From assembly GCF_056712565.1 (NCBI RefSeq), contig NZ_CM160072.1: a stretch of DNA of 64,000 bases. One strand, written 5' to 3'. This document shows positions 15,812 through 18,850 of this stretch, piece after piece. How positions within the stretch are numbered: position 1 is the stretch's first letter; every line of letters starts with the position of its first letter. Below the pieces are notes generated by a model. That model had not been told where the DNA came from. It did not search any database and was given only the letters and a program-made list of their open reading frames with translations. A program made the position numbers and the translations under genes.

Positions 15812-15956
15812 CCCGAAAACCAATGGTGACCTGAGCGCAGATATCCGCCGTCTTGAGGGCGCGCTGACCGCCTGCGCGCTGCAGGTTAAAACCGTCAAAC
15901 ACTGTCAGGATGAACTCGATGCAGAAGCACAAAAGCCTGCGCAAAGCGCTGATTAA
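15666..15956 (+). CDS. lysC: o-spanin lipoprotein (Rz1-like, P2 LysC-like), overlapping lysB out of frame
   Basis: Lipobox LMLCVGC, Pro-rich; overlaps the 3' part of lysB in a different frame. Confidence 0.6.
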   Translation: MKMKPFAAGITLLCLMLCVGCTPAPPAPVPVIVVSGCPRVSLCPMPGSDPKTNGDLSADIRRLEGALTACALQVKTVKHCQDELDAEAQKPAQSAD

Positions 15957-16386
15957 CGCCGTGCCGCAGCTCCGAAATAATCCCGATATGCTGCGCCTTT
16001 TTGCCGACAACGGCCATACCGATTCCCGACTGGCGAGCTCGCTGTCGTTTGAAAAGGTGTACGTGCTTAACGTGGTGGTGACTGACTTCACCGGTGACCT
16101 TGATTTGATATTCGTGCCGGTGCAGGCGTGGCTGCGTGAACATCAGCCGGACATTATGACCACCGACGACGGGCGGGAAAAAGGATTCACCTGGATTATT
16201 GATATCAATAACGACGATTCGCTCGATATCAGTATCAGCCTGAGGCTCACCGAGCGCACACTCGTCAAAGAGGTCGACGGCGCGCTGCACGTCAGCTATG
16301 CCCCTGAGCCGCCACTGCCTGAGCCGGTGACGCGCCCGGTCGAGCTGTACGTTAACGGCGAACTGGTGAGTAAGTGGGATGAGTGA
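15910..16386 (+). CDS. R: tail completion protein (P2 gpR family)
   Basis: 158 aa, order R-S. Confidence 0.7.
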   Translation: MNSMQKHKSLRKALINAVPQLRNNPDMLRLFADNGHTDSRLASSLSFEKVYVLNVVVTDFTGDLDLIFVPVQAWLREHQPDIMTTDDGREKGFTWIIDINNDDSLDISISLRLTERTLVKEVDGALHVSYAPEPPLPEPVTRPVELYVNGELVSKWDE

Positions 16387-16825
16387 ATTAACCGCGCTGC
16401 AGGAACGCCTTGCCGGTCTGATTGCCAGCCTGTCACCGGCGGCACGTCGGCAAATGGCGGCTGAGATTGCGAAAAAGCTGCGTACCAGTCAGCAACAGCG
16501 TATCAAGCGCCAGCAGGCACCCGACGGCACCCCGTATGCGGCACGAAAGCGCCAGCCGGTGCGGAGCAAGAAAGGTCGGATTAAACGTGAAATGTTCGCC
16601 AAACTGCGCACCAGTCGCTTTATGAAAGCCAAAGGCAGCGACAGTGCGGCGGTGGTGGAGTTTACCGGCAAGGTGCAGCGCATGGCGCGGGTTCATCAGT
16701 ACGGCCTCAAAGACCGGCCAAACCGTAACAGCCGGGATGTGCAGTACGAGGCGCGCCCGTTGCTCGGTTTCAATAGTATAGATATGAGAATTATTGAGCG
16801 GTTAATAATTGGGGCTTTGGATTAA
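16379..16825 (+). CDS. S: tail completion / virion morphogenesis protein (P2 gpS family); last ~18 codons AT-rich
   Basis: 148 aa; composition switches to AT-rich at about 16770. Confidence 0.7.
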   Translation: MSELTALQERLAGLIASLSPAARRQMAAEIAKKLRTSQQQRIKRQQAPDGTPYAARKRQPVRSKKGRIKREMFAKLRTSRFMKAKGSDSAAVVEFTGKVQRMARVHQYGLKDRPNRNSRDVQYEARPLLGFNSIDMRIIERLIIGALD

Positions 16826-16853
16826 TTATGATCTAATATATTATTTTGTGATG

Positions 16854-16880
16854 AGGCTGGATAAACACCAGCCTTGATTT
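16854..16880. terminator. hairpin between convergent S and HIT-family gene (bidirectional terminator candidate)
   Basis: GGCTGG-ataaacac-CAGCC followed by T-rich run. Confidence 0.4.
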
Positions 16881-17524
16881 TATAGTTTGAAATCTGCGTA
16901 ATTATCAATAACCTCTAGAACACCGCTGATGTTGTTATCTCTGCGCCAATTCCAATTGCCATGTATCAAATTTGCATTAGAATAAAGATATCTAAGGAAC
17001 TGAGATGGTAAGAGTGGTTTGTTGCATAAAAATTCATCATAACTATTACTCATATACCACACATATCCATTTTTAATGTCAAAACTTAAATTCTCACCTT
17101 CAATTTTCTTAAAGTTAATTTCTTTATTTAGAGCATTTTCAAACTCTTGTGTATAATAAACACAGTGTATATGAGCGTGAGAAATGCACCCTCCTGAACG
17201 ATCTATATTTTCACCTGCTCCGCTTTCAAAGAAAATTAGAGATCTACCAGATTGGTGGATTATAAATTCATTAAGTTCTCGCAGAATCTCCTTGCCATTA
17301 CTCCGGGTATCTCGATCAAGAGCAGCAAAGGAGTTGATATGCCGCTTAGGAATCAGCATCACATGCGAATTATTTAGCGGGCCAATACTAGGTACAATTA
17401 GAAAATCATTTGTTTCTGCAATGATATTTTTCTTGTCATTTACGATTTCATCGTATCCTTTGATAAGGCTAATGCCATTTATTTCATCGCATATTCCACA
17501 GAACGAATTACAAGAATTATTCAC
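16880..17524 (-). CDS. HIT-family (histidine triad) protein with ~80-aa C-terminal extension; cargo gene
   Basis: CNSFCGICDE, NSHVMLIPKRHI and histidine triad HAHIHCV; AT-rich. Confidence 0.7.
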   Translation of the reverse strand: MNNSCNSFCGICDEINGISLIKGYDEIVNDKKNIIAETNDFLIVPSIGPLNNSHVMLIPKRHINSFAALDRDTRSNGKEILRELNEFIIHQSGRSLIFFESGAGENIDRSGGCISHAHIHCVYYTQEFENALNKEINFKKIEGENLSFDIKNGYVWYMSNSYDEFLCNKPLLPSQFLRYLYSNANLIHGNWNWRRDNNISGVLEVIDNYADFKL

Positions 17525-18089
17525 GTTTATTGTCTCCTGGTTTTTTAGGGAGCAATTTTTCAGCCCAAGATGCGAGTCGGCTTAGAACTAAGTCTGAAAA
17601 ATATCCTAATATAAAACAAATCGAGAATGCAATTTTGGTCTTACCATGCCCTTTAATGGAGGATACAAACGTATCCGGAGATAATATCGTATAAGAACAA
17701 AAAGCCACTAAAGCAGCTAAGAACGGAATAAAAATCCTCCAGTAGAACTTATGGGATTCCCAAGGGAAATTATACTGATTGTTTTTCCCTCTAGCAGTTA
17801 CTCTATAAAACCATTTTGCATTATACACCCACCCTCCAAAAAAACCACCAAGAATAGAAAACAAAGATATTTTATTATTATATGACAGCTCAAAAACAAA
17901 TTGAAAAAGAAAGGCGAGAATGCAACCTATTACAAAAAGAACTATTAAATAAGCAAATTCGAATTTTATTTGTTCACAATCGTTATTAAAATAAGGCACA
18001 ACCTCATCATCGCCTAAGGTTTTTTTTCTTTCAGTCATTTGCCAAACACCTTCATTTTTTACTGTGAGCCAGGGTAATTGCATATTCAA
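17517..18089 (-). CDS. small integral membrane protein (about 4 TM helices); cargo gene, overlaps HIT gene by 8 nt
   Basis: Hydrophobic stretches YLIVLFVIGCILAFLFQFVF, ISLFSILGGFFGGWVY, IFIPFLAALVAFCSYTIL, IAFSICFILGYFSDLVL; AT-rich. Confidence 0.65.
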   Translation of the reverse strand: MNMQLPWLTVKNEGVWQMTERKKTLGDDEVVPYFNNDCEQIKFEFAYLIVLFVIGCILAFLFQFVFELSYNNKISLFSILGGFFGGWVYNAKWFYRVTARGKNNQYNFPWESHKFYWRIFIPFLAALVAFCSYTILSPDTFVSSIKGHGKTKIAFSICFILGYFSDLVLSRLASWAEKLLPKKPGDNKRE

Positions 18090-18214
18090 CTTGGCTATTC
18101 TAATTAATTCTCACAAGATTTCATAGATGTTGAGTAGACCTCTCAGAAGTTGTTTCATTCCTCACAGAATCCATCTCGATTGCCACTAATCTTGCCGGGC
18201 GTCATCCTTCCCAT

Positions 18215-18850
18215 ATGAAAAATCTAAATTCTTTGCAAGAAATCGCACGCGCGATCCGAAATCTCATCCGTACCGGCATCGTTAGCGACGTAGACCTCAA
18301 GGAGGGGCTATGTCGTATCCAGACCGGGGGGATGCAAACCACTTGGCTGAACTGGCTGACCACCCGAGCCGGTCGTTCGCGGACGTGGTGGGCTCCCTCG
18401 GTCGGTGAGCAGGTTCTGCTGCTGGCAATCGGTGGCGAGCTTGATACCGCTTTCGTGCTGCCGGGTATTTTCTCCGACGATAACCCCGCCCCGTCTGCCT
18501 CGGCGGATGCGTGGCATGTGGCTTTCCCTGATGGTGCGGTCATTGAGTACGAGCCCGAAACCGGCGCGCTGACGGTCAGCGGCATAAAAACGGCCGACGT
18601 GACGGCATCGGAGTCCATCACCGCAACCGTACCGCTGGTACTGGTGAAAGCCTCGACCAGTATCACCCTCGACACCCCGGAGGTGATTTGCACCAATAAG
18701 CTAACGACGGCGACGCTTGAGGTGCAGAAAGGCGGCAAGATGAGCGGCAATCTCGAACATACCGGCGGGTCACTGTCGTCTAATGGCAAGGTACTCCACA
18801 CCCATAAACACCCGGGCGACAGCGGCGGGCAAACGGGGGCACCGTTATGA
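18215..18850 (+). CDS. V: baseplate spike/assembly protein (P2 gpV family)
   Basis: 211 aa as P2 V, first of V-W-J-I-H-G run. Confidence 0.8.
   Translation: MKNLNSLQEIARAIRNLIRTGIVSDVDLKEGLCRIQTGGMQTTWLNWLTTRAGRSRTWWAPSVGEQVLLLAIGGELDTAFVLPGIFSDDNPAPSASADAWHVAFPDGAVIEYEPETGALTVSGIKTADVTASESITATVPLVLVKASTSITLDTPEVICTNKLTTATLEVQKGGKMSGNLEHTGGSLSSNGKVLHTHKHPGDSGGQTGAPL

Follow-up and report, generated by a model that had tools for sequence, protein, structure and literature searches.

How can DNA of accessory character reach into the end of a phage tail gene, and is that gene broken by it, fortuitously extended, or exchanged together with its neighbour? The question is raised by a locus in the window, that is, the whole 64,000-nucleotide stretch of contig NZ_CM160072.1 (RefSeq assembly GCF_056712565.1) analysed here, whose DNA is found at 100% identity in E. 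coli chromosomes (e.g., APEC E18055 and SF-468). The late genes of a 186-like (Eganvirus-type) E. coli prophage make up the region, which is collinear with 186 and P2 and has the gene order R - S - V of the P2-like late region; its S-V interval is an AT-rich stretch of 1,389 bp with two overlapping minus-strand open reading frames (the TM and HIT genes described below). S is the equivalent of 186 gene O (gpO) and of P2 gene S, the tail completion/virion morphogenesis protein, and matches Pfam Phage_tail_S (PF05069; E 3.7e-35, 121.4 bits for a cut-off of 24.3) and TIGR01635 (E 1.9e-50, 170.7 bits for a cut-off of 37.65), in both cases over residues 3-147; a PDB sequence search, and Foldseek with an AlphaFold model of S, gave no meaningful structural relative. 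The left side of the locus is made of the following parts:

15910 to 16386: gpR homologue, the 5' neighbour of S in the R - S - V order.
16379 to 16825, plus strand: S, 148 amino acids.
16379 to 16768, plus strand: S core (codons 1-130), backbone sequence and left homology arm of the proposed exchange.
16769 to 16825, plus strand: cassette-borne S tail FNSIDMRIIERLIIGALD (codons 131-148) with the stop codon, a predicted alternative C-terminal helix.

An earlier note on this DNA had claimed that the last ~18 codons of S (it quoted the C-terminal sequence ...PLLGFNSIDMRIIERLIIGALD*, which is the one found here) switch from GC-rich to AT-rich, in continuity with the inserted DNA, and had suggested that the left junction lies inside S, whose end appeared rewritten by the cargo insertion. 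The switch is real: GC falls from 0.61 in codons 1-130 to 0.30 in the last 54 nt, which in comparison to 1,820 windows of 54 nt from the flanking late genes (mean 0.56, sd 0.074) gives a z of -3.6, with 0.33% of these windows equally low. The low GC then runs unbroken from the S tail into the following 1.4 kb (0.31-0.40), as the note had it. Alignment with phage 186, phage Midge and empty E. coli loci, moreover, maps the breakpoint inside S. Its DNA is ~99% identical to cargo-free relatives until base 16772 (codon 131/132), the first base of codon 132, with a single-base difference from the empty-locus consensus in the preceding 60 nt, and identity collapses from there, the left junction being 16772/16773, at most 3 nt from where the note had the altered end begin; at the protein level, similarity to 186 and relatives ends at codon 130/131. 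The tail FNSIDMRIIERLIIGALD was never found in a phage without the insert. That interpretation of S is supported by the alignments, with modest refinements, one of them being that the C-terminus was indeed replaced, apparently by allelic replacement and not by simple insertion, there being neither a remnant of the native tail nor flanking repeats.

The occupants of this position in related phages were surveyed in 89 loci from IMG/VR, phage records and E. coli genomes, whose S cores, those of cargo-bearing loci included, are 85-100% identical. Most of them (64/89) are empty, with an S-V gap of 68-69 bp, and every one of these 64 has a tail of the native type (GC 0.42-0.52) behind an S core 86-100% identical to that of the window, the tail consensus F[TS]xDDEQMIExVI..HLGK being kept even across S cores only 86% identical. 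The other 25 carry cargo from 11 unrelated families, 900-1500 bp long, with a gap GC of 0.32-0.39 against 0.56-0.61 in the late genes, and tail GC is 0.38 or lower in 23 of them. Eight cargo families have their own strongly divergent tail (GC 0.23-0.38), in which the S motif is still present, and in these eight independent families the left breakpoint falls at codon 130/131, within ~3 nt. In the surveyed loci, identical cargo always goes with identical tail; diverged members of one cargo family usually have diverged but related tails (the window and L008, L002 and L088, L063 and L066); each distinct tail is found with only one cargo family, and every strongly divergent AT-rich tail adjoins cargo.

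Such a distribution bears on the simplest view that could be taken of the tail, namely that the C-terminus of S is just fast-evolving, unconnected with the neighbouring cargo. Tail variants are many among S proteins with near-identical cores (protein clusters P0090-P0209, with cores near-identical to that of the window, have more than 50 different C-terminal tails), and between the window (16769-16822) and L008 (4391-4444) the tail shows 8.5 non-synonymous and 0.5 synonymous differences (dN/dS ~4), as opposed to dN/dS of 0.11-0.20 in the S core, HIT, TM and V head of the same two loci; coming from a single pair and nine differences, however, this ratio is only a hint of relaxed or diversifying selection. 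Against this view stand the conservation of the tail in all the empty loci, even the least similar in S core, the confinement of strongly divergent AT-rich tails to the side of cargo, with one cargo family per tail, and a divergence that begins abruptly at one codon instead of decaying gradually, and we regard it as extremely improbable.

The association of cargo with a replaced tail is not universal. Cargo stands behind a native-type tail in L075 and L076, L071 has a hybrid tail with the break mid-tail, and L029 and L038 have a moderately diverged version of the native tail with a GC of 0.28. P2 orf30 and other P2-clade cargos also lie behind native tails, and among 80 IMG/VR loci ranked by full-length identity to P2 gpS, a ranking that makes the set biased and unable to reveal tail replacement in the P2 clade, all had the native tail and were either empty or occupied by orf30 or a ~1,035-bp cargo. 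These exceptions show that the crossover point can vary. The commonest alternative allele in E. coli, seen in L002 (phage vB_EcoM-613R3), L004 and five IMG/VR loci, encodes a 278-aa protein annotated as pentapeptide repeat-containing or YjcF, behind the tail YSSSDLQKVESLIMDALCQRH, and its protein clusters are found on hundreds of contigs.

A different account of the AT-rich end would be an illegitimate insertion, in which foreign AT-rich DNA landed inside S, the last 19 codons were lost, and fortuitous read-through to the first stop codon left S with a non-homologous C-terminus. The composition, continuous from the S tail into the cargo, speaks for it, and so does the essentially complete loss of DNA similarity to the native tail. 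The encoded protein speaks against it. In alignment with the native 186 tail FTRDDEQMIEDVIISHLGK, the window tail FNSIDMRIIERLIIGALD has in common D at position 5, I at 9, E at 10, hydrophobic residues at 13 and 14, and L at 17, and so keeps the S-family pattern (D at 5, I/V at 9, E at 10, hydrophobic 13, 14 and 17). The S core with different tails attached was scored against an S-family HMM, for which 105 diverse representatives (33-71% identity to the query) were used: the window tail adds 17.5 bits, native tails add 24 to 28, and 13 other distinct tails from cargo loci with GC of 0.38 or lower behave alike, adding 16.6 to 25.3, a gain unmatched by 200 shuffled window tails (3.8 +/- 2.2 bits, maximum 13.5) or by 200 random stop-free AT-rich read-through tails (3.0 +/- 2.0 bits, maximum 9.3). 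AlphaFold2, run on a 111-sequence alignment (mean pLDDT 91.7), predicts the same terminal helix for the window tail with confidence (residues 133-147, pLDDT ~95). The tail starts directly after L128, L129 and G130, the last nearly invariant block in the S family alignment. The HMM gain, together with the confident helix, suggests that the replaced piece is the last secondary-structure element of S. By sequence and model, the new C-terminus is homologous to the S-family end, predicted as its helix, and not a read-through of foreign DNA, which makes the illegitimate insertion scarcely credible.

When compared to the C-termini of 270 S proteins (the 105 diverse representatives included), the window tail resembles only other cassette-type tails, and no low-GC donor S lineage was identified among those 270 proteins. 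Several cassette-type tails are closer to each other than to the native tail, with a pattern F/Y-x-S-S-D-L-Q-K-[IV]-E-x-L-I-[IM]…; this resemblance hints that, once a tail has been replaced, further cargo exchange may take place behind it.

Like the left junction, the right one falls within a gene, V, at ~codon 43. The first ~129 nt of this gene have a DNA identity of ~55-75% to all other relatives, after which identity is 97-100%, to empty-locus and other-cargo relatives alike. The exchanged block goes from 16773 to ~18343 (~1.6 kb), and beyond the S tail its parts and right flank are:

16852 to 16886, plus strand: terminator-like hairpin (stem-loop 16852-16876) and T-rich run, on the cassette, 3' of S.
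16880 to 17524, minus strand: cargo gene 2, HIT-like protein of 214 amino acids with the motif HAHIHC.
17517 to 18038, minus strand: cargo gene 1, hydrophobic, probably membrane (TM) protein of 173 amino acids starting with MTERKK.
18039 to 18214, plus strand: stretch before V that is specific to the cassette and presumably holds the late promoter of the V operon.
18215 to 18343, plus strand: cassette-borne V head, codons 1 to ~43 (MKNLNSLQEIARAIRNLIRTGIVSDVDLKEGLCRIQTGGMQT...), up to the right junction at ~18343.
18344 to 18850, plus strand: rest of V, baseplate spike; backbone sequence and right homology arm of the proposed exchange.

The hairpin has 9 pairs in a consensus scan, 5 of them G-C, and folds as RNA with -22.1 kcal/mol (z = -4.2). 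Its P2 counterpart, at the same position 30 nt after S, is the annotated rho-independent terminator of the O operon, and the cassette hairpin is likely the terminator of the late operon ending with S. The HIT-like protein belongs to the HIT superfamily by profile match and by its HxHxHxx-type motif: it matches Pfam CwfJ_C_1 (PF04677, 28.4 bits), DcpS_C (PF11969, 28.5 bits) and HIT (PF01230, 23.4 bits for a cut-off of 21.5) with E of 1e-6 to 1e-4, corresponds over its full length to phrog_23000, a PHROG of unknown function, and is annotated in RefSeq as HIT family protein. The TM protein has no Pfam match and matches phrog_22917, also of unknown function. A mechanical list of open reading frames extends its gene to a TTG at 18089 (17517-18089, 190 aa), but its homologues in L008, L009, L190 and L191 are 173-aa calls whose alignment with it begins at MTERK, the ATG of window position 18038. 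The 8-nt overlap of the TM and HIT genes suggests that their translation may be coupled. No defence-protein match was obtained for either cargo protein in PADLOC-DB 2.0 at E <= 0.1, nor any functional name in NCBIfam, tblastn of both against 50,697 phage records gave no match, and a search of the literature on HIT-domain defence systems found nothing relevant. To judge from its setting, the cargo presumably has an accessory function, possibly an anti-phage one.

The region upstream of V (18039-18214) could not be aligned with the S-V spacer (68 bp) of empty loci; by analogy with P2, where a pV activator site and a transcription start are annotated at the equivalent place, it is presumed to hold the late promoter of the V operon. 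V itself (18215-18850, plus strand) matches Pfam Phage_base_V, Phage_spike and Apex. The window's variant of the V head is found with HIT cargo in L008 too, and in a more diverged form in L009; in most cargo families V identity resumes at ~codon 13, as opposed to ~codon 43 in the HIT family and L072. Independently of the junction, V is mosaic in its own right, its C-terminal apex (…GNLEHTGGSLSSNGKVLHTHKHPGDSGGQTGAPL, ~18755-18850) matching P2 gpV rather than 186 orf32, with 76-80% DNA identity to P2 and 38-56% to 186 over the last 90 nt.

A breakpoint shared by eight independent cargo families to within ~3 nt could also result from site-specific insertion with restoration of the gene end, with the RPLLG codons of S as the target of a recombinase and an S end brought along by each element. 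Phage 21 and e14 do something of this sort, integrating into icd and supplying a substitute 3' end; here, too, the incoming element supplies a substitute 3' end, one that fits the family profile in every element, and the interrupted gene would stay functional. The S-V cassette differs from the icd case, however, in being without integrase, att repeats and displaced original end, and in that a second gene, V, would be restored at its 5' end. The cassettes contain only 1-2 cargo ORFs and no recombinase gene; in the window's block, specifically, the only ORFs are TM and HIT, and no recombinase gene or domain was found. A scan of the junctions gave no flanking direct or inverted repeats and no target-site duplication beyond short AT-rich chance matches, and a search of the block for a displaced native S tail found no remnant, the only similarity to the native allele being the collinear conserved V block. 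Chi sites, considered as a possible recombination hotspot, are absent within 13 kb of the locus. Since recombinase, junction repeats and displaced tail are all absent, neither transposition nor site-specific insertion is indicated. Besides, the right junction varies, from V codon ~13 to ~43, as does the left one (L071, L075, L076, P2), and the common breakpoint, located at the end of the last conserved block, is predicted by homologous recombination as well. We consider site-specific insertion quite unlikely.

The interpretation that probably holds is that the S-V interval is one allele of a swappable cassette, exchanged by homologous recombination anchored in S and V. The allele in the window would consist of the last helix of S (18 codons), the terminator, the minus-strand operon of the 173-aa TM and 214-aa HIT-like proteins, the region upstream of V and V codons 1-~43, and the 'empty' allele that it displaced would consist of the native tail FTRDDEQMIEDVII(R/S)HLGK, the 68-bp spacer and the native V head. 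P2-like (pro)phages would exchange the alleles by homologous recombination, crossing over in the highly conserved DNA to the left (the S core, as far as its nearly invariant ...RPLLG block) and to the right (V beyond its head). That the left breakpoint recurs would then reflect where the last conserved S block ends, with no recognition site involved. That the cassette ends exactly at this block supports recombination anchored in core-gene sequence. As both borrowed gene ends would encode working equivalents, cargo could change without damage to the tail genes. The breakpoints, the strict linkage of tail and cargo, the homology and predicted helical nature of the tail and the lack of insertion scars are observed; the recombination mechanism and the functionality of the variant S and V are inferred.

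Some observations weigh against this interpretation. Cassette tails are AT-rich like the cargo (GC 0.23-0.38), even next to cargo that looks anciently resident, which homologous recombination alone does not explain, and the 105 diverse S representatives included no donor S lineage for the tail. Replacement of the tail is not obligatory either, as the native-type tails of L075, L076 and P2 and the hybrid one of L071 show, and a site-specific process, too, could give many families one and the same left breakpoint.

If whole alleles are exchanged in this way, how long has the HIT cargo been travelling with its tail? Among 5,426 complete E. coli genomes, DNA for the tail FNSIDMRIIERLIIGALD is present in seven, the same seven that hold the HIT cargo, and tail and cargo are both present in the IMG/VR loci L012 and L013. 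Six protein clusters in a collection of 5.8 billion proteins carry this tail, and every one of the contigs behind two of the six continues into the cargo DNA at 99-100% identity. The seven genomes belong to isolates from humans, pigs and chickens, and the allele is further seen on several metagenome contigs. A TM+HIT pair lies between S and V in five P2-like backbones (the window, L008, L190, L009 and L191), in which HIT divergence tracks backbone divergence: identities to the window are, in this order, 100, 94, 74, 73 and 65% for the S core and 100, 90, 76, 74 and 64% for HIT. All five tails are AT-rich (GC 0.27-0.39, cores 0.53-0.61) and related in pattern. HIT cargo and related AT-rich tails in five backbones suggest that the cassette, tail included, is an old resident of the S-V locus. 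At the same time, the S core protein of the window is 99-100% identical to that of several empty loci, and to several of them fully identical, so that alleles are evidently shuffled among near-identical backbones.

A linkage that persists across S cores only 65-74% identical, for the V head as well as for the tail, could mean more than physical proximity, with the variant S tail and/or V head being selected together with the cargo. It is in favor of such functional coupling that the changes in the tail are mostly amino-acid replacements and that the TM+HIT pair is also found in prophage accessory loci typical of defence genes. Physical linkage alone, on the other hand, accounts for the association; a native-type tail is possible within one cargo family (L075 compared to L029), P2 orf30 and other P2-clade cargos do without a replaced tail, the TM+HIT pair occurs in contexts with no S gene nearby, and it lacks a PADLOC defence match. 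We see very little probability in functional coupling. In one form of it, as speculative, the TM+HIT genes would work as an exclusion system, and other S-V cargos would by extension do the same: an incoming P2-like phage would set the system off through its native S tail or V head, and the variant ends of the carrier would be its immunity allele. Improbable as it is, such a system would account for the lasting linkage of tail and cargo, for a tail evolution biased towards replacements and for each cargo keeping its own tail.

The exchange of S-V alleles through flanking core sequence, preferred here, makes the locus an ordinary, well-replicated phage mosaic joint at a known hotspot. Temperate phages, the lambdoid ones in particular, evolve modularly by recombination at conserved flanks, which leaves mosaic joints and moron cassettes in their genomes. 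The S-V locus resembles these in its abrupt change of DNA identity (~99% to ~40%), in having joints at the boundary of a protein structural element, and in its AT-rich accessory genes with their own transcription signals. It differs from them in that many independent alleles share one left joint, and in that each allele seems to bring functional alternative ends for two essential genes.

As for the hotspot, orf30 of P2, between S and V, is one of three P2 regions (with TO and Z) that commonly hold genes absent from P2 and predicted to be horizontally acquired (Lynch et al. 2010, PMC3091744), a listing that this paper credits to Nilsson et al. 2004; phage R18C has a different ORF in the orf30 region (PMC6823313). 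The window's cargo is in the same S-V position, AT-rich and on the opposite strand, as in most related loci, the DNA between S and V varies among near-identical phages in the same manner, and a terminator after S and a V promoter region after the cargo are arranged as annotated in P2. Unlike it, the cargo of P2 and of the sampled P2 clade is wholly intergenic, behind a native S tail, whereas the variable block here and in most 186-like cargo alleles extends into both genes, taking in the final helix of S and V codons 1 to 13-43. The P2-like defence hotspots gpA-Q (old/tin) and Z/fun (Rousset et al. 2022, PMC9122126; Vassallo et al. 2022, PMC9519451; Moura de Sousa et al. 2026 preprint) show a similarly rapid turnover of cargo between core genes, and a TM+HIT homologue lies on the gpA side of an old/tin-type hotspot in Pantoea-type contigs; they are, however, different loci, and the TM+HIT cargo of S-V is without PADLOC match. 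Recent hotspot papers centre on these two (PMC9122126, PMC9519451, bioRxiv 10.1101/2024.10.15.618418), and the recombination process behind P2 cargo swapping is described as still to be elucidated (bioRxiv 10.64898/2026.02.27.708500). Within a literature search of incomplete coverage, we found no published description of junctions inside S and V or of cassette-specific S tails.

What this locus adds is a view of cargo exchange at a site of P2-like phages that is known for cargo but little studied: each limit of the exchangeable unit lies within one of the flanking essential tail genes, and the unit comes with substitute ends for both. Hotspot surveys that delimit cargo by core-gene boundaries will hence misplace the junctions, and variants of the S tail and V head could be used as markers of cargo type. 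The understanding of phage biology is left unchanged by it; this is a well-documented example of mosaicism with useful mechanistic detail.

The TM+HIT pair is not confined to S-V. Pairs 46-69% identical are found at other accessory sites (L184-L186, L180, L187-L189, L182-L183): a homologue 66% identical lies ~1.5 kb downstream of a P2 gpA-like replication gene in the Pantoea-type contigs (L184-L186), others are beside umuDC-like genes near the tail-fibre genes of other prophages, and others still are beside a Zot-type filamentous prophage region in Vibrio (L182-L183). This suggests that the cargo is independently mobile, as a conserved two-gene module moving between prophage hotspots. In Enterobacter sp. 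FB (L009; JSZC01000013.1, 4744-5247), a degraded P2-like prophage has a Cox-like N-terminus fused to the C-terminal part of S, and the HIT cassette and V-W-J-I remain beside this fusion.
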